From IMG/VR virus record IMGVR_UViG_3300042558_003703: 64,000 nt of DNA; one strand, given 5' to 3'. This document shows, piece by piece, positions 1 to 10,566 of the stretch (its first letter is position 1; each line of letters begins with the position of its first letter). The notes beneath the pieces are model-generated. The model was not told the origin of the DNA. It was given only the letters and a program-made list of their open reading frames with translations, and did not search any database. A program made the translations under genes and the position numbers. The stretch is from an uncultured virus (IMG/VR IMGVR_UViG_3300042558_003703) (lineage: Duplodnaviria; Heunggongvirae; Uroviricota; Caudoviricetes).

Positions 1-3000
1 TCCTTGTGGGCCTTGTGGTCCTTGTGGTCCAGTTGCACCAGTAGATCCAATGGGTCCGATAGGTCCTTGTGGTCCTTGTGGTCCAGTTGCACCAGTAGAT
101 CCAATGGGTCCTTGTGGGCCTTGTGGTCCAGTTGCACCAGTAGATCCAATGGGTCCTTGTGGGCCTTGTGGTCCTTGTGGTCCTTGTGGTCCAGTTGCAC
201 CAGTAGATCCAATGGGTCCTTGTGGGCCTTGTGGTCCTTGTGGTCCAGTTGCACCAGTAGATCCAATGGGTCCTTGTGGGCCTTGTGGTCCTTGTGGTCC
301 AGTTGCACCAGTAGATCCAATGGGTCCTTGTGGGCCTTGTGGTCCAGTTGCACCAGTAGATCCAATGGGTCCTTGTGGGCCTTGTGGTCCTTGTGGTCCA
401 GTTGCACCAGTAGATCCAATGGGTCCGATAGGTCCTTGTGGTCCTTGTGGTCCAGTTGCACCAGTAGATCCAATGGGTCCTTGTGGGCCTTGTGGTCCTT
501 GTGGTCCAGTTGCACCAGTAGATCCAATGGGTCCGATAGGTCCTTGTGGTCCTTGTGGTCCAGTTGCACCAGTAGATCCAATGGGTCCTTGTGGTCCTTG
601 TGGGCCTTGTGGTCCTGTGACACCAATGGGTCCGATGGGTCCTTGTGGTCCTTGTGGTCCAGTTACACCAGTTGCTCCCGTGGGTCCTTGTGGTCCACCT
701 GCTAATAGGTTAGTGCCTACTCCTGCGGCTGCTTCTGTTATATCAATATATGCACCACGTACAGTACCGCCTTGCTCAAAAATTCTTATCTTATTTTGAT
801 AAGCATCTATAGTGATACCAGTTCCAGTGTATGTTGAATTTGCAGCAGGTTTTGCTAATAGTATTTCTCCACCTTCGTCACCTACACTGTTGCTCACTAT
901 AATCTGGGGTACTGTTAAAATAGTAGTTCCGTCGAAAGTGAAGTTAGCAGAGCCTGCTGGATTATTAGATCCATCTTTATAAACAACTTGATTGGCAGAT
1001 CCAGCTACTGGTCCTGTGGGTCCTTGTGGTCCAGTTGCACCAGTAGATCCAATGGGTCCTTGTGGTCCAGTTGCACCAGTAGATCCAATGGGTCCTTGTG
1101 GTCCTTGTGGTCCTTGTGGTCCAGTTGCACCAGTAGATCCGATAGGTCCTTGTGGTCCTTGTGGGCCTTGTGGTCCAGTTGCACCAGTAGATCCTGTGGG
1201 TCCTTGTGGTCCTTGTGGTCCTTGTGGGCCTTGTGGTCCAGTTGCACCCGTTGATCCGATAGGTCCTTGTGGTCCAGTTGCACCAGTAGATCCTGTGGGT
1301 CCTTGTGGTCCTTGTGGTCCTTGTGGTCCTTGTGGTCCAGTTGCACCAGTAGATCCTGTGGGTCCTGTGGGTCCTTGTGGTCCTTGTGGTCCAGTTGATC
1401 CAGTTAATCCTGTTGCGCCTTGCAAACCAGTGGCAATCAGCACCAAAATTATAGGAAGATCGTTGGCAAAGTTGGTAGTACCAGTTCCGCCAGAATCAAG
1501 CAGCGTTACCGGTACCTCTACATATCCAGTTTGCAAAGTAGGAGTGCCGTTGACTTCCCATTTTTGGAAGTTGTCACTCAATGCAGCATCCTGTATGATC
1601 ATGACGTCTTTGTTTTTCAACAAAGCCAAAAATACATCAATATCAATACCGTCAGCATCAATATGGCTTATGTTGATGCGAGTCGCATCAACTTGAGTAG
1701 CAGTACTCCAGATAATATCGCTATTGCCGGGATCACCGCTTGTGATACTGGTGTCTACCAAATAATTGTAATAGCCGGCACTTCCGCCGTCTTGACCAGC
1801 AGGGCCTTGTGGGCCTTGCGGACCGGTAGTACCTGTTAAGCCAGTTGCACCTGTGGCACCAATAGGTCCTTGTGGTCCTTGTGGTCCAGTTGTGCCTGTT
1901 AATCCAGTTGCACCTGTAGAACCTATTTCGCCTTGTATACCTGATGCACCAGTTGCTCCGATAGGTCCTTGTGGGCCTTGTGGGCCTTGTGGTCCAGTTG
2001 TGCCTGTTAATCCAGTTGCACCCGTTGATCCGATTTCGCCTTGTATACCTGATGCACCAGTTGCTCCGATAGGTCCTTGTGGGCCTTGTGGTCCAGTTGT
2101 ACCTACAAGGCCAGTCGCACCTGTAGAACCTATTTCGCCTTGAATACCTGACGCACCTGTGGCTCCGATTTCGCCTTGTGGTCCTTGTGGTCCAGTTGTG
2201 CCTGTTAAGCCAGTCGCACCTGTAGAACCTATTTCACCCTGTATGCCGCTAGCACCAGTTGCTCCAATTTCACCCTGTATGCCTGACGCACCAGTTGCAC
2301 CTGTAGGTCCCTGTGGTCCTTGTGGGCCTTGTGGTCCAGTTGTGCCTGTTAAGCCAGTTGCACCTGTAGAACCAATTTCACCCTGTATGCCGCTAGCACC
2401 TGTTGCTCCGATAGGGCCTTGTGGTCCTTGTGGTCCTGTAGTACCTACGAGGCCAGTTGCACCTGTAGAACCTATTTCGCCTTGAATACCTGACGCACCA
2501 GTTGCTCCCGTAGGTCCTTGTGGTCCTGTAGCACCATCTAATCCTGTAGCACCTGTTGCACCAATTTCGCCTTGTGTGCCACCAGCACCAGTAGCACCTG
2601 TGGGTCCTTGTGGGCCAGTTGCTCCATCAAGTCCTGTGGCTCCAATTTCGCCTTGTATACCTGACGCACCAGTTGCTCCGATTTCGCCTTGTATGCCTGA
2701 CGCACCTGTGGCTCCAATTTCGCCTTGTATACCTGACGCACCAGTTGCTCCGATTTCGCCCTGTATGCCTGACGCACCAGTTGCTCCAATTTCACCCTGT
2801 ATGCCACTTGCACCAGTTGCTCCAATTTCACCTTGTATGCCTGACGCACCAGTTGCACCTGTAGGTCCCTGTGGTCCTTGTGGGCCTTGTGGTCCAGTTG
2901 TGCCTGTTAAGCCAGTTGCACCTGTAGAACCAATTTCACCCTGTATGCCGCTAGCACCTGTAGCTCCGATTTCGCCCTGAATACCTGACGCACCTGTTGC

Positions 3001-6000
3001 TCCGGTAGGTCCTTGTGGGCCAGTTGTACCTGTTAAGCCACTGGCACCTGTAGCTCCGATTTCGCCCTGAATACCTGACGCACCTGTTGCTCCGGTAGGT
3101 CCTTGTGGCCCTTGTGGTCCAGTTGTACCTGTTAAGCCACTGGCGCCGGTTGCTCCAATTTCACCCTGTATGCCGCTAGCACCTGTTGCACCAATTTCAC
3201 CCGTAGGTCCTTGTGGTCCTTGTGGGCCAGTTGTACCTGTTAAGCCACTGGCACCAGTTGCTCCGATTTCGCCTTGAATACCTGACGCACCTGTTGCACC
3301 AATTTCACCCGTAGGTCCTTGTGGCCCTTGTGGTCCAGTTGTACCTGTTAAGCCACTGGCGCCGGTTGCTCCAATTTCGCCTTGAATACCTGATGCACCT
3401 GTTGCACCCGTAGGTCCTTGTGGTCCAGTTGTACCTGTTAAGCCACTGGCGCCGGTTGCTCCAATTTCGCCTTGTATACCTGACGCACCAGTTGCACCTG
3501 TAGGTCCTTGTGGTCCTTGTGGGCCGGTAGTACCTACAAGTCCACTAGCACCTGTAGCTCCAATTTCGCCCTGAATACCTGACGCACCTGTTGCTCCGAT
3601 AGGTCCTTGTGGTCCTTGTGGTCCAGTAGTACCTACAAGTCCACTAGCACCTGTAGCTCCAATTTCGCCTTGAATACCTGACGCACCAGTTGCTCCATCA
3701 AAACCAGTTGCTCCGACATCGCCTTGTGGTCCAGTTGCTCCATCAAGACCAGTGGCTCCATCAAGTCCCTGGAATCCAGTAGCACCATCGAATCCAGTTG
3801 CACCGTCAAGTCCTTGATCGCCTTGCATGCCTGTTGCACCAGTGGCACCAATCGAGCCTTCTCCTCCACTAGTGCCTGTAGCGCCGATATCACCTTGAGG
3901 TCCAGTAGCACCTACATCGCCTTGTATACCACTAGCACCTGTTGATCCTTGTGGACCTTGTGGCCCTGTAGTACCAGTTAGACCTGACGCACCAGTTGCA
4001 CCCGTAGGCCCTTGTGGTCCTGTAGCACCATCAAGTCCCTGGAATCCAGTTGCACCATTGAATCCAGTTGCACCGTCAATTCCTTGTTCGCCTTGTATAC
4101 CCGATGCACCTGTGGCACCTACATTACCCTGTATTCCGGTGGCTCCGGTTGCACCTTGTACACCTGATGCACCGGTTGCTCCTGGACCTGTAGCGCCATC
4201 AAATCCCTGTGGTCCTTGTGGTCCAGTTGCTCCAGTTGCACCTGCTCCGGTTGCACCGGTTGCTCCCGTGGGTCCTTGTGGTCCTTGTGGTCCCGTTGCT
4301 CCCGTGGGTCCTTGTGGTCCTTGTGGTCCCGTTGCTCCAATGGGTCCTTGTGGTCCTTGTGGGCCTGTTGTACCTGTAAGTCCTGACGCACCGGTTGCTC
4401 CTACATCGCCTTGAATACCTGACGCACCTGTGGCACCTACATTGCCTTGAATACCTGACGCACCAGTTGCTCCTACATCGCCTTGTGGTCCAGTGGCTCC
4501 ATCTACCCCAGTGGCTCCATCCAATCCTGTAGCACCTACATCTCCCTGTGGTCCAGTGGCTCCATCTAAACCAGTTGCACCTACATTGCCTTGAATGCCT
4601 GACGCACCAGTAGCTCCAATGGGTCCTTGTGGCCCTTGTGGCCCTGTTGTACCTGTTAGTCCAGACGCACCTGTGGCACCTACATCGCCTTGAATACCTG
4701 ACGCACCTGTTGCTCCAATGGGTCCTTGTGGCCCTTGTGGCCCTGTTGTACCTGTAAGACCTGATGCACCTGTTGCTCCAATGGGCCCTTGTGGCCCTGT
4801 TGTACCTGTTAGTCCAGACGCACCTGTGGCACCTACATCGCCTTGAATACCTGACGCACCAGTTGATCCTTGTGGCCCTGTTGTACCTGTAAGACCTGAT
4901 GCACCTGTTGCTCCAATGGGTCCTTGTGGCCCTGTTGTACCTGTTAGTCCAGACGCACCTGTGGCACCTACATCGCCTTGAATACCTGACGCACCAGTTG
5001 ATCCTTGTGGCCCTTGTGGGCCAGTGGCTCCGGCTAGTCCGGTTGCTCCAGCTAGTCCAGTTGCTCCGGCTAGTCCAGTTGCTCCAGCATTGCCTTGCAG
5101 GCCAGTTGCTCCGTCAAATCCAGTAGCTCCATCGAGACCAGTTGAGCCAATATCGCCTTGCAGGCCAGTTGCTCCTGTAGGACCTTGGGGTCCTGTAGTA
5201 CCTGTAAGTCCACTAGCACCTGTGGCGCCTGCACCTGTTGCACCTGTTGGTCCCGACGCACCTGTAGCACCTGTGGGTCCTTGTGGTCCTGTGGTACCTG
5301 CAGGTCCGCTGGCACCGGTGGCTCCACCAGGGCCTTGTGGTCCTTGTGGTCCAGTTGCTCCGTCAACAGCAGAAATTCCTGTCAACAGACTGCCGTCGCC
5401 GATATAGTAGTTGGCAGTGATATTGCCTGTTGCAGAAACATTTCCAGATTGGATGTTGCCGGATATGTAGGCGTTGTCCCAAGGATTAGTTATATTACCA
5501 ACGTCGGCACTGGCACCCAATGTTACTATTGGTACAATGTCTCCGGGCATCTCACTAGTACCAGACTCGGTGAATCTCCAAGTTTTAGTTATTCCATTGA
5601 CAACAATAAGTTCGATGTCAATGCCGGTCAAGCTGATTTGAGATTCTACAACACTGTCAGCATCAATGGATTGTATTCTAATGTCGGATCCGGGTGCGCT
5701 GACAAAATCGTCAGTGCCTTGTTCTGGATGACTGTGCCAATATGCACCGCCAGGCCCAGTGAGAAATTGACCCGATATAGTCCATGTGTCAGATCCAGAT
5801 GAAACAGTTAAATTTCCAGCGGCCAGATTGCCAGTATATGTTGGCAAATAATTAGCCACGTTGGCGTTGCCATAGCCTTGGGGCAGCCCAGTCAACTGAC
5901 TACCGTTGCCAACAAAATAATTTGCAGCAATATTCCCAGTGGTAATTACATTACCAGTTAAACTTCTTAAGTTTCCAGTATATGTTGGCAAATAATCAGC

Positions 6001-6399
6001 CACGTTGGCGTTGCCATAGCCTTGGGGCAGCCCGGTCAACTGACTACCGTTGCCAATAAAATAGTCTGCAGATACATTTCCGCTGACATTAAGGCCGCCG
6101 GCTCCGATATAGGCCGAACGATATCTTAGATTAGCTGACCCAAGATCATAGGTGTTTGTTACACGTGGTACCAATTTGCTATTGGTTTGTATTACACCGA
6201 TACCATTGGGACTCAGTATTAGATTTCCGTTGGTATTCACCACTCCAATGGTGTTGTTCAGTATGGTTACGTTGCTACCAACTGGTCCTGTTGCCCAAAT
6301 CTGATCGAAATTGTCGTCAGTTTTTATAAACGCAGTGCGAAGGCTGTCACCTTCGCCGTCGTTTGGGCTTTCACCATAGTTGATTATATTTTGAGCCAT
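1..6399 (-). CDS. Giant collagen-like tail fibre/baseplate-associated protein, >2,130 aa, 3' end outside the window
   Basis: Absent from the ORF track (no stop in window). ATG at 6399 gives [31 protein letters not shown] (T4 gp9/gp10-like N-terminal motif), then Gly-X-Y runs (GPQ, GAT, GST, GAS). I read the globular inserts at ~1430-1790 and ~700-1010 as open; the latter is in frame with 6399. Late TAAATA box upstream. Confidence 0.9.
5831..6062 (-). repeat. Internal duplication of ~88 bp encoding YF(I/V)[19 protein letters not shown](D/N)YLPTYTG
   Basis: Near-identical copies at ~5831-5918 and ~5975-6062. Confidence 0.85.
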
Positions 6400-6423
6400 G
6401 AACCAGAATCCTTGTTGTCGGTG

Positions 6424-7914: not shown

Positions 7915-8122
7915 ATTCGCTCCATTTCAGTTTAAAAAGTAATAGGTCTTGTGGATTTTGAAAAATAATAGTCATATTTAATAGACCAACATCGGCAAAG
8001 TACCTGTCGCCAGGCAAGCCAAATTGCTCAATAACTTGGGCACAAATTTCATTCCAGTGAAATTTAGAATCAGACGTCCACACAATTCTGGAACGCCAAG
8101 GAAGGTCTTTTTTGTTAGCCAC
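7904..8122 (-). CDS. Small hypothetical protein, FxxxxDxxxFxLxW family
   Basis: C-terminal IIFQNPQDLLLFKLKWS; GTG start inferred. Confidence 0.6.
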   Translation of the reverse strand: MANKKDLPWRSRIVWTSDSKFHWNEICAQVIEQFGLPGDRYFADVGLLNMTIIFQNPQDLLLFKLKWSEYEL

Positions 8123-8492
8123 GGCGCATGGTACTGATCTCAACCGCTTCCTCATCTGAGAAAACAGGTACTGCATTGCTCTTGTGCATAGTACCAATAC
8201 CTTTGACCTTGGTGCCAGTGTAGACTTTGTCGGGTGCTCGTGCTGCTACCCCTAGCCCGGTGTTGAGACTGGGAATGTGATCTGTTGAGCGCGGAATTGA
8301 TATTTTGGGCATCTTGCTGTTGGTAAAAGATTTTGAAAACACAGGCCTCTTGGGTGTATGCGTCTGCTTGAGTTGCTGCCAATCTGCTGCCAACTGCTCG
8401 TGTTGACGTTTGGCTTCTGCAGAAGCAAACTTGGGCTTTGCACGTTTTTTACCAGTGGTACTAAGCCAGGGACCTTCCAAATGCATCGACAC
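8115..8492 (-). CDS. Basic hypothetical phage protein
   Basis: Ends YTGTKVKGIGTMHKSNAVPVFSDEEAVEISTMRR; follows a sigma70 promoter. Confidence 0.7.
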   Translation of the reverse strand: MSMHLEGPWLSTTGKKRAKPKFASAEAKRQHEQLAADWQQLKQTHTPKRPVFSKSFTNSKMPKISIPRSTDHIPSLNTGLGVAARAPDKVYTGTKVKGIGTMHKSNAVPVFSDEEAVEISTMRRG

Positions 8493-8522
8493 AGGTGTGC
8501 TCCTTGTTAGTGATTATACTAC

Positions 8523-8551
8523 ATTATAACAAACAACACATTACCGGTCAA
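8523..8551 (-). promoter_or_regulatory. Sigma70-type early promoter TTGACC-N17-TATAAT
   Basis: -35 at 8551-8546, -10 at 8528-8523. Confidence 0.8.
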
Positions 8552-8880
8552 CCACGATCTAATAGGTCGATCTTGTTGGGCTTACCGTCCCATTCAACAG
8601 CATCGGGCAAGGGTTCTTTCTTTCTTGTAATAATGGACCAAGTCTTGGACAGTTCGGCATTGATAGCCAAAAAATGTCGTTGGTTTTCAGGCAAGTCTTC
8701 TTCGGCAAAGATAGCGCCAGCTGGACATTCGGGAACACACACAGCACAGTCGATACATTCCGAAGGATCGATAATCAAGAAGTTTGGACCTTCCTTGAAA
8801 CAATCTACAAGCTAAGGGCAGACATCAACACAGTCGGTATACTTGCATTTAATACAGTTTTCAGTTACGACGTATGTCAT
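8548..8880 (-). CDS. fdxA: 7Fe ([3Fe-4S]/[4Fe-4S]) ferredoxin interrupted by an in-frame 6-nt insertion TAG-CTT (recoded or pseudogene)
   Basis: [52 protein letters not shown]..., colinear with Azotobacter FdI-type ferredoxins except TAG (8814-8812) and CTT (8811-8809). SD AGGAGG upstream. Confidence 0.88.
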
Positions 8881-9661
8881 TGTCTGCCCTTGCCTCCTTG
8901 TTTAGGATTCCGTCCTTGTGCGGGACATACAAGTGTATGTCTACAAAACTTTTTAAACATTCAGTATAACCTCCAAATCTTTTTTTAGGTTTATATTTTT
9001 CTACAGTAGACAGAATTTTTTGTTCTGCTAATGCTATATTATACATGGTATCGCATACAGTGTCAACAACTTCAAAATCATAATGTGCAATGTATTTTAT
9101 ACGATCTCTGACATCTAATTTGGTAGTAATTCCAATTTTATAAAAATCTTCTGAAGAATTATATAAAAGATATAATGTAGCAGGAATATCTTTTTTATCG
9201 GGGTATCTATCAAAATAAGTGTTTATGAACCAGGGTCTATAATCACCGTGTTTCTTATCACCACATTTTCTACAACCATATCCTTCAAGGTGGCCGCTTG
9301 CGTTTTGATCAAAATCACCGTGTATAGGACAAGTTATTGTTACGCTAGATCGACTGTTGACATAATTTGTTTTGGTGTATGCATAAAAATTATTGTGCAA
9401 TTTTTCAGCTTTAGATATAAACTCATTATTGGTCATCCTTCGACGCAAAACGTAATCAGACCAATTATCTTTACATTGTTGGCAACCGGACCCTGATAAC
9501 AATGTTCGAGCATTTCTTTTAAAGACCCCGTGTAGATTGCAAGTTAGAACTACATTACTTCTTGTATTGATGTAGACTGTATTTGCATAATCATATCGAT
9601 CTTTATAAATTTCTTGGCACCTAGAGACAAATTCGTCCTGCGTTAGTTTTTTTGTAGACAT
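8861..9661 (-). mobile_element. Free-standing homing endonuclease: two Cys/His zinc-binding repeats plus a T5orf172/GIY-YIG-like nuclease domain
   Basis: Repeats YDY..TVY....V.LTC..HG.F.......G.GC..C twice; C-terminal LYLL...FYKIGIT...DRI...EQKI...GYTE. AT-rich, own TAAATA box, overlaps the fdx start. Confidence 0.8.
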
Positions 9662-9696
9662 AAAATTATTTATGCCGGACACACTTTAACGCAGTT

Positions 9697-10086
9697 CTAT
9701 TTTTGTAGAGTTGCCCACATTTTTTGTTTGGCCAACAAGTCTGCTTCTAATTGTCGGTACCGCGCACCGAGCTCACGCAATTCATTCCATTCAGATTCCA
9801 ATGCAGTATTTGGTGTCAATAAGTTGAGTCGTTCCTGTATGCCTTTTAGTGTGTCGTTCAAGCTGACGTTATTGATGACAATATCGGCGCCTTCACCTTT
9901 TAAATCTAAACGTCCGGTTGGAACAGTCGAATCAAATGTGCTGGTGATATTAATAGAGTCCAGGGCGTTTGTAGTATGCCAAACGTATTGGTCGCCTGTT
10001 AATGAATTTGTTGTTATCGAATTGTTTAAGGGCGCAGTACTTGTATACATGCTATCTGCAGAGTTAGAAAATAATGAATTAAACAT
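9697..10086 (-). CDS. Hypothetical protein with C-terminal coiled coil
   Basis: 129-aa ORF coupled to the upstream ORF. Confidence 0.65.
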   Translation of the reverse strand: MFNSLFSNSADSMYTSTAPLNNSITTNSLTGDQYVWHTTNALDSINITSTFDSTVPTGRLDLKGEGADIVINNVSLNDTLKGIQERLNLLTPNTALESEWNELRELGARYRQLEADLLAKQKMWATLQK

Positions 10087-10273
10087 TGGATTTTATGTCC
10101 TTGCTGTCGGCTTTTTTTAGAGTAAATGAGCCGTCGCCGTTGTCGATCCATGTTATTGTATCGCCTGATTTCCAGCCCATGTGCTCGCACAGTTCGTCAC
10201 CCAGGTCCAAAAATATTTCGCCTGGGTGTTCGGGATCCTCTACAAGAGTTCGAACAAAACTGTAATGTGTCAT
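10079..10273 (-). CDS. AbrB/MazE/SpoVT-like small DNA-binding protein
   Basis: GEIFLDLGDELCEHMGWKSGDTITWIDNGDGSFTLKK. Confidence 0.6.
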   Translation of the reverse strand: MTHYSFVRTLVEDPEHPGEIFLDLGDELCEHMGWKSGDTITWIDNGDGSFTLKKADSKDIKSNV

Positions 10274-10465
10274 TTATTTTGCAACAGTCAATGCTTCTTT
10301 TTCAGCAGTGATTTCTTTTCTGCGCTCTTTGACAGCTTTGGAAATTTCCTGCAGGGCCTTACGTGCGCGAGCAGCAGATGCCTTGATACCTTTGGTGGCA
10401 AACTTTTCGTTTTCGGCAAGATAAGTTTCGAAAGCGGCTTTGAGTTGGTCGTGATTTGCTGACAT
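10274..10465 (-). CDS. Histone H1-like protein (Hc1 family)
   Basis: EKFATKGIKASAARARKALQEISKAVKERRKEI; GGAG RBS and TTGACA-N17-TAAAAT promoter (10530-10502). Confidence 0.75.
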   Translation of the reverse strand: MSANHDQLKAAFETYLAENEKFATKGIKASAARARKALQEISKAVKERRKEITAEKEALTVAK

Positions 10466-10566
10466 GTAATTCTCCTTGGTTATCAGTTTTAGTACTATAC
10501 TATTTTATAGTGTTGTGTTGACTATGTCAACAGATATTTAATGATTTTGTCACTTTTAGAGCAAAG

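Follow-up and report, generated by a model that had tools for sequence, protein, structure and literature searches.

The complementarity between the 5′ untranslated region of a phage ferredoxin gene (fdxA) and the site where its coding sequence is interrupted is real and conserved, and it belongs to an apparently undescribed cassette with a putative homing endonuclease that, as read from its sequences, probably repairs the gene it invades by programmed ribosomal bypassing. Comparison of homologous loci shows a cassette that inserts after the Pro22 codon of phage fdxA and abandons the resident start, and that brings its own promoter, leader, codons 1–22, and a UAG-initiated insert of 5, 6, or 28 nt. 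It looks like a second, independently built endonuclease-plus-bypass element in large aquatic phages.

The window (the whole 64,000-nt stretch analysed) is a piece of a large phage genome, and fdxA lies on its minus strand (Table 1) among neighbours that, from their translations, we take to be ribonucleotide reductase, ClpP/ClpX-like, SOD, and IscA-like ORFs. The ferredoxin aligns with ferredoxin I structures of the Azotobacter type (E = 1e-45), leaving a 2-residue gap precisely where TAG CTT stands, and insert-less near relatives exist (94% identity). The nearest virus record, an 18%-complete fragment with one fdx copy, has 97% of sampled words in common with the window. A near-perfect sigma-70 promoter (TTGACC-17-TATAAT, 11/12, with TG; minus strand, 8551–8523) begins at the fdx stop codon and precedes the next gene. 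On the minus strand of 1–6400 lie long collagen-like Gly-X-Y repeats, recognised through plus-strand shadow ORFs, which probably belong to a tail-fibre gene running off the window end.

Table 1. Features of the interrupted fdxA gene and its cassette in the window
Feature	Position	Strand	Remarks
Left end, target-copy remnant (codons C-V-K-V-C-P)	9676..9693	minus	ends at the Pro codon preceding the element
CATAAATA motif	9667..9674	minus	5′ of endonuclease gene; [TC]ATAAATA occurs 3 times in the window, all minus strand
Putative homing endonuclease, 266 aa	8861..9661	minus	DUF723 zinc-ribbon repeat and T5orf172/MUG113-like nuclease domain
Sigma-70 promoter, TTGACA-17-TATAAT	9038..9066	minus	perfect; inside endonuclease ORF, about 157 nt before fdx ATG
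Hairpin H1 (GACAUAC/GUAUGUC)	8924..8941	minus	91% paired; 5/7 pairs with double changes
Predicted H-type pseudoknot	8904..8923	minus	S1, CCG (8923-8921)/CGG (8912-8910); S2, AGGA (8916-8913)/UCCU (8907-8904)
Shine-Dalgarno (SD), AGGAGG	8893..8898	minus	strong; unusually far (12 nt) from AUG
Spacer and guide	8881..8892	minus	core GCAGAC (8887-8882) pairs with codons 20-21
fdxA (7Fe ferredoxin)	8880-8548	minus	in-frame TAG CTT between Pro22 and Val23
Cassette-borne fdxA codons 1-22	8815..8880	minus	guide target GTCTGC, 8823-8818; presumed take-off codon CCT, 8817-8815
Insert, 6 nt, TAG CTT	8809..8814	minus	stop codon and presumed landing triplet
Resident fdxA 3′ part, Val23 to stop	8548..8808	minus	intact, with CxxCxxCxxxCP

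Pairing and structure of the leader

Directly 5′ of the ATG at 8880, AAGGGCAGACA (8891–8881, minus strand) is the exact reverse complement of TGTCTGCCCTT (8824–8814), as the initial annotation had it, coordinates included, and the region 8795–8910 folds into a single long hairpin (−39.6 kcal/mol, z = −5.49, 0/200 shuffles as stable). Two extensions of this helix had been proposed: AGGC/GCUU, with the A of UAG bulged, is present in the minimum-energy structure, and ACAAG/CUUGU is absent from it. The complementarity is kept across insert-bearing homologs, with a 6-bp leader match to codons 20–21, 0–2 nt from the AUG, in 42/42 distinct insert-bearing genes compared to 1/59 insert-less homologs, the controls for which were the 80 best matches to the window protein, with the marine-type clade under-sampled. 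A first check among the 80 top-ranking viral homologs had found 2 with the same insert. In the ensemble, guide pairing exceeded 0.5 in 41/42 insert-bearing and 3/59 insert-less genes, and the Val20 codon is GTC in 40/42 and 8/59, respectively. Synonymous changes compensated in the leader (GTC>GTT and GCAAAC, 2 rows; TGC>TGT and ACAGAC, 3 rows) amount to few independent events, a point against the bypass model, and a divergent insert-bearing homolog (L015, 69% identical) retains the pairing through changes on both strands. The proposal that the leader co-evolved with the insert, which is then no random lesion, is strongly supported by the 42/42 versus 1/59 distribution and the compensatory changes. 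G·U pairs in the guide helix (7/33 at one position) indicate that pairing is at the level of RNA, not DNA. A single leader-bearing, insert-less allele was found (L227/L267), and the leader is therefore compatible with a normal gene.

The conserved pairing covers codons 20–21(22), which lie 5′ of the stop (paired in 96% of cells; 3/8 pairs with double changes), and pairing with the inserted bases varies (64% of cells, single register tested; 0 double changes). In the 5-nt class the latter is absent or marginal, the 8 tested alleles pairing essentially only with codons 19–21. Pairing over the inserted bases is thus secondary, since its register shifts between alleles and it is missing in the 5-nt class; the earlier suggestion that the helix uses inserted bases applies to the window and many 6-nt alleles without being universal. 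The same alleles bear out the suggestion that the helix occludes the SD, though partial occlusion is predicted in 27/40 leaders with GGAGG. The initial annotation missed the larger mobile element around the helix, with its endonuclease, internal promoter, pseudoknot, and duplicated start of the gene.

The leader is an ordered series of elements, with GGAGG 11–13 nt before the AUG in 40/42 insert-bearing and 0/59 insert-less genes, 6 nt from the end of the pseudoknot in 29/38 and 5 nt from the guide in 30/38. H1 is dispensable and is missing where the endonuclease has been lost (e.g., L094, L143, and L167). Pseudoknot stem S1 is 100% paired and nearly invariant, and for that reason unproven by covariation; S2 covaries clearly (90% paired, 3/5 pairs with double changes). 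Across the alignment of 33 sequences, which left out the divergent L093/L114-type leaders and the 28-nt alleles, 89.5% of cells in the hairpin-pseudoknot-SD-guide structure are paired and 11 pairs have double changes, and the covariation exceeds all 500 shuffles and all slid controls, though relatedness inflates such numbers. By eye, the divergent leader type seems to keep the pseudoknot topology with other bases. A covariance model placed the leader only at fdx, both in 5 large contigs (with one extra match, E = 0.18) and in 99 local sources that included 64 loci around endonuclease relatives, and 14 viral matches in a pattern scan for the leader before other genes consisted of 4 at fdx and 10 apparent chance GC-rich matches. 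Downstream structure is not conserved (5/6-nt forms, median z of 0.12 versus 0.20). An Rfam scan of 8000–10500 gave no ribozyme or intron, only two snoRNA/lncRNA matches (E = 1.8 and 3) far under the gathering scores. Group I intron, twister, HDV, hammerhead, and pistol identities were rejected in the same interval, where no family covariance model or core matched, as was a twister-like reading (GAG-GC/UAG), the P2 of which (ACAAG/CUUGU) is not kept in homologs and which has no Rfam match.

Insert alleles and the mobile cassette

Pattern scans that allowed any 1–30 nt between the Pro and Val codons and required TGTGT or TGCGT, so that inserts >30 nt in metagenomes could escape them, returned 23 viral and 88 metagenome matches, of which 21 and 60 were ferredoxins with a TAG-initiated insert. 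The remainder comprised 2 ferredoxins with an extra C or CCC, which look like homopolymer errors, and 28 chance matches; one further scan with the 1–30-nt pattern gave 0 matches. Those two ferredoxins aside, TAG directly follows the Pro codon in 81/81 multi-base ferredoxin inserts, from collections that overlap. Among 45 distinct 5′ regions, the insert was 6 nt in 33 (CCT TAGCCA, n = 12; CCT TAGCTT, n = 10; CCT TAGCTA, n = 8; CCT TAGCCG, CCT TAGCTG, and CCG TAGCCG, n = 1 each), 5 nt and out of frame in 10 (all CCG TAGCG), and 28 nt in 2 (L152 and L199), and TAA, TGA, or a sense codon stood in place of TAG in 0/45. UAGC is invariant in 43/45 alleles, a strict conservation that fits a weak stop and also a catalytic site. 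The landing position holds a Pro codon in 16 alleles, CUN in 19 (including CUU in the window), and GCG in 10, followed by Val23 as GTA, GTT, or GTC in 44/45 and GTG in one.

In the 28-nt form, a stem-loop of −21.9 kcal/mol holds the take-off codon and UAG in its 5′ arm and pairs, in its lower stem, the GUCUGC that is also the target of the guide, and GAG stands 6 nt before a matched CCA landing codon, with an AU-rich spacer of six bases. These alleles have the leader and 5′ copy in common with the 5-nt alleles, and the 28-nt gap may be an ancestor or a secondary expansion. A further sequence (L215) also has a 28-nt-type insert and ends inside it. No cultured phage with the cassette was found in INPHARED, where the best endonuclease matches were 37% identical and the sole DNA match was an intact ferredoxin beside mutS; one record filed as an Acinetobacter phage (L346, CAKLQF020000001.1) has the order mutS-acetyltransferase-ferredoxin and looks like a bacterial chromosome. 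A genome collection gave 0 six-nt matches and, with a looser pattern, 2 matches, consisting of a real 5-nt allele (3.8-kb contig in a MAG) and one chance match.

At its left end the cassette has a V-C-P|G(C/T)ATAAATA junction common to 9 homologous loci (window, 9693–9667), which in the window includes CATAAATA, presumably akin to a T4-type late promoter. The endonuclease ORF overlaps the leader and first fdx codons with its 3′ end. In Pfam it matches DUF723 above the cut-off (E = 1.7e-4) and T5orf172 (E = 0.004) and MUG113 (E = 0.012) below it, and it also matches PHROG 681, endonuclease (E = 2.5e-39), and a PHROG labelled HNH endonuclease. Its family is tight, with about 67 close clusters of 194–268 aa, most ending in leader-encoded residues. 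Nine clusters of the same family (P0023, P0042, P0044, P0049, P0053, P0059, and P0066–P0068) have C-termini unlike the usual leader-encoded peptide and, on that basis, may carry other leader types or target sites. The 12/12 promoter is present in 11/40 insert-bearing loci, 10 with a full or near-full endonuclease and one where a long remnant is left; it is absent from all 58 insert-less loci, none of which exceeds 10/12. In lineages now without the promoter region, a new near-consensus promoter is often seen.

An endonuclease or its 3′ remnant was found upstream in 24/44 insert-bearing loci compared to 0/59 without an insert, where 1 kb or more of upstream sequence was available for 55. The endonuclease is truncated or undetected in 27/37 informative loci, where leader, insert, and both gene halves persist. 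At one locus (L179) the resident codons 1–22 run straight into the cassette left junction, and at three others (L089, L131, and L164) two left ends are stacked. L164 has two full leaders (518–565 and 1408–1455), the first preceding an abandoned resident start that reads C-P then GTA, without an insert, and the second preceding the new copy; this abandoned start with its own full leader, together with the stacked ends, suggests loss and re-invasion. A tree built from the resident 3′ half (95 proteins, 89 columns), which is weakly resolved and has biased sampling, requires 5 changes of insert status, of which at least 4 fall on well-supported branches, and identical 5′ copies occur on 3′ halves that differ at about 12–17 synonymous sites in 39 codons. 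The repeated changes and the identical copies on diverged halves indicate that the element moves horizontally. In L113, most of the cassette endonuclease is replaced by another ORF of 260 residues, which has repeated basic motifs, looks endonuclease-like by eye, and lies upstream of the fdx ATG (965 to 182 nt); the 3′ end and promoter of the cassette endonuclease remain.

Substitution patterns show purifying selection on both halves of the rebuilt gene. The pN/pS of cassette-borne codons 2–19 is 0.27 compared to 0.21 in normal genes, all four Cys, Val18, Val20, and Pro22 are kept in 35/35 distinct cassette-borne copies, and the 3′ cluster motif is present in 42/42. The residue profile of codons 1–22 is much alike with and without the insert. 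Abandoned resident 5′ copies are truncated or gone at most loci, and each of 5/5 large partial contigs has one fdx/ferredoxin match.

Proposed crossing of the coding gap

The favoured reading, in which the leader would stimulate recoding, starts from the putative nuclease, which would cut fdxA at the site coding for Val-Cys-Pro/Val-Asp-Cys. Because these residues are invariant, immunity would come by insertion and not by substitution, the insert shielding the allele from the cassette's own nuclease. A ribosome would pause when its P site holds Pro22 and its A site UAG-C, the peptidyl-tRNA-Pro would let go, the mRNA would slide by 5–6 nt (a +5/+6 bypass), and the tRNA would re-pair on CCN, CUN, or GCG, with decoding resuming at Val23 to yield wild-type ferredoxin. 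Given the geometry of the ribosome, the guide would be unable to pair while codons 20–21 occupy the E-site channel and would pair once the ribosome has slid, since the end of its target would then lie 5–6 nt before the triplet in the P site, at the spacing from which the gene 60 mini-SD acts. In the alleles themselves, the guide target ends 6 nt before the landing triplet (5 nt in the 5-nt class). The helix may then draw the mRNA forward, keep it from sliding back, and set the length of the hop, which would account for poor landing codons being tolerated; that it drives and fixes the hop is suggested by the shared spacing and by pairing of exiting mRNA being a proposed motor. With no ribosome on codons 1–22, the helix would partly cover the region of initiation and may restrict the loading of ribosomes. 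No single readthrough or frameshift rule accommodates inserts of 5, 6, and 28 nt; a hop or an excision can cover all of them. Further points in favour of the bypass reading are TAG directly after the Pro codon in 81/81 inserts, the gene 60 features of the 28-nt form, the linkage to the endonuclease, the selection on both gene halves, the persistence of leader and gene where the nuclease is truncated or undetected, and the compensated synonymous changes. The Pro tRNAs found in these phages, moreover, carry the anticodon UGG (7/7), which reads CCU, CCA, and CCG by wobble.

Several observations weigh against a hop. In 29/45 alleles the landing triplet is not a Pro codon; against a UGG anticodon, CUN would need a G·U pair at position 2 and GCG is mismatched at position 1. 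The C and Y of CYN are explained equally well by pairing to the GG of the SD. The 5- and 6-nt forms are without a take-off stem-loop, mini-SD, or special downstream structure, and UAG is never swapped for UAA or UGA, though a mere pause would allow it. Three protein clusters read CPQLVDC, and a real Gln codon in the DNA would mean that two extra residues are tolerated. A bolder version, which we consider rather doubtful, makes the 5′ UTR an adaptor lengthening the anti-SD of the ribosome: the pseudoknot and GGAGG would stay docked on the 30S platform during elongation, or re-dock to it, and the adjoining 6–8-nt guide would grab codons 20–21 as they leave the E site and pull the mRNA by 5–6 nt across the stop. 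If true, a 45-nt leader would programme a site-specific jump at any downstream complement of the guide, largely independent of codon matching.

The poor landing codons would be irrelevant if the 5–6 (or 28) nt were removed from the RNA, the leader being a small ribozyme or the guide for a phage nuclease/ligase. Though unlikely, such excision fits the covarying pseudoknot at its fixed 6-nt distance from GGAGG and the invariant UAGC, and in one register, with the cut after the Pro codon's CC, it brings back Pro-Val in every class. The pairing around the removable bases, however, varies freely (bulge, internal loop, or none), there is no conserved U·G splice pair or terminal G, the 28-nt allele has ribosome-type signals, and the Rfam scan of 8000–10500 also speaks against it. 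The leader-bearing, insert-less allele L227/L267 differs from its nearest relative at codons 15–18 too, which fits recombination and not a copy of spliced RNA.

Improbable as well is the tolerance of two extra residues, by UAG-C readthrough in the 6-nt form and a −1 shift at C-CCG in the 5-nt form, with the leader stimulating this or tuning initiation. The products, C-P-X-L/P-V-D-C and C-P-V-A-V-D-C, would both be exactly two residues longer, the −1 frame is open, UAG-C is a weak stop context, and CPQLVDC is read in three clusters (3/120 matches; 0/120 with a second query from another clade). Two mechanisms would be needed, though, and both fail for the 28-nt form, where the two shifted frames meet stops; a sense codon, which should sweep if the residues were tolerated, replaces TAG in 0/81 insert-bearing ferredoxin contigs. 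One Q-form cluster includes a C-terminal fragment starting after the break and a version extended by W beyond the usual end, which makes alternative-code gene calls likely, from a caller switching genetic codes, and the CPQLVDC clusters are probably such calls, although the Logan preprint, in its account of its own gene calls, names plain Prodigal. TAG acts as a normal stop in the window, terminating 6/57 long minus-strand ORFs, and no tRNA with a CUA anticodon is present among 143 tRNAs in stretches of 5 partial contigs, both of which count against readthrough and led us to reject an amber-recoded phage (code 15) or suppressor readthrough. No tRNA genes were found in the window or the nearest record, both genome fragments. 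In two insert-bearing phage contigs, tRNA genes were called with four-base anticodons (L260, 7026–7099, gtaa; L263, 6356–6433, ttgt).

That the insert inactivates a dispensable fdx, the helix merely repressing a useless 22-residue peptide, is very improbable: the in-frame stop, the predicted masking of part of the SD in 27/40 leaders, and an intact 3′ half that could reflect recent invasion, given identical 5′ copies on diverged 3′ halves, are set against a cassette-borne 5′ copy that keeps its Cys residues and a near-normal pN/pS while abandoned resident copies decay, and against a perfect promoter and strong SD, with promoter-losing lineages often gaining a new near-consensus one. Least credible is a split protein, with termination at UAG, re-initiation at or near Val23, and two fragments assembling around the clusters; endonuclease-split genes with interacting halves are described (MobE-split NrdA; bioRxiv 10.1101/2022.08.31.505936), but Val23 is GTA, GTT, or GTC in 44/45 alleles, no SD precedes it, no terminal extensions are added, and frame-independent re-initiation would not require a C-first triplet.

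Comparison with known bypass systems

No description of an interrupted phage ferredoxin was found in the literature searched, mostly open-access and without preprint supplements. The 2022 preprint on the gene 60 cassette calls that cassette unique, and 'ferredoxin' occurs 0 times in its main text, the scope of the search (bioRxiv 10.1101/2022.08.31.505936). Bacterial programmed bypassing rests on gene 60 (well studied) and Hau3 (partly tested). If true, the bypass reading would add a rare natural ribosome hop with a gap of 5–6 nt and a leader of about 45 nt, for which dozens of natural variants and insert-less controls are available, and would open to test whether mRNA pairing at the ribosome exit drives forward sliding. 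It would also give a mobile nuclease a further way, beside introns, inteins, and split genes, to reside inside a conserved gene, would imply that, among the short in-frame stops of phage genomes, some reflect neither pseudogenes nor recoding, and would account for spurious code-15 gene calls.

Synthetic 'stop hops' of +5/+6 were reportedly obtained by Weiss et al. in 1987. Those events and the fdx site have in common the codon-stop-codon arrangement, the decoding of 9 nt as one amino acid, and the lengths +5 and +6, but the fdx site is natural, conserved, and has dedicated cis signals. The synthetic hops were unprogrammed, low-level events in constructs, and no natural in-frame stop hopping was then known according to a passage of the 2016 review (PMC5009743). 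In the terminase of the Streptomyces phage Hau3, a 10-nt bypass was confirmed in E. coli, by mass spectrometry, with a version carrying UAA (PMC10732093). Hau3 resembles fdx in its short coding gap, the proposed stimulators being a 5′ stem-loop and a flanking SD, and differs in its rare UUA sense codon as trigger, its proposed regulatory role, an SD in the coding region, and, in the passages on it, no link to an endonuclease (PMC10732093). The Magnusiomyces mitochondrial byps are likewise mobile inserts that ribosomes skip, some of them with take-off and landing imperfectly matched, but they are 27–55 nt long, are read by mitochondrial ribosomes, involve an unused sense codon, and are reported in the passages on them as independent of mRNA context (PMC5009743; bioRxiv 10.1101/2022.08.31.505936).

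The closest likeness is to the gene 60/MobA cassette (bioRxiv 10.1101/2022.08.31.505936, Manning and Atkins; 10.1101/2024.12.09.627546, Wills et al.). In its described parts, gene 60 has a mini-SD 5–7 nt 5′ of the landing codon and homologs all with matched codons (bioRxiv 10.1101/2022.08.31.505936), and its bypass is proposed to be driven by pairing of the mRNA as it exits the ribosome (bioRxiv 10.1101/2024.12.09.627546). In both cassettes a free-standing endonuclease and a UAG-initiated coding gap travel together (UAG in 45/45 here), the element supplies a new N-terminal stretch homologous to its target, insertion has been repeated at one site with the endonuclease often lost while the gap stays, and 5′ mRNA pairs close to where take-off occurs; gene 60's take-off stem-loop, mini-SD, and matched codons recur here in the 28-nt allele. 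The nuclease, in contrast, is DUF723 plus T5orf172-like instead of the HNH MobA, the two being set apart by domain matches, the target is fdxA instead of a topoisomerase, and the gap is 5–6 nt instead of 20–50 nt. Unlike gene 60, the fdx cassette has a mostly unmatched landing triplet (window, CCU/CUU; Pro in 16/45) and lacks a take-off hairpin in 43/45 alleles, there being no room for one in 5–6 nt; at the mini-SD position the 5/6-nt alleles hold the guide target GUCUGY, with GAG at 6 nt only in the 28-nt alleles. Its RNA signals (pseudoknot, SD, and guide) lie in the 5′ UTR, 60 nt and 19 codons from the paired site, and its gene is rebuilt whole by the cassette and not split. The fdx cassette probably works like the MobA/gene 60 cassette and is not a member of it.
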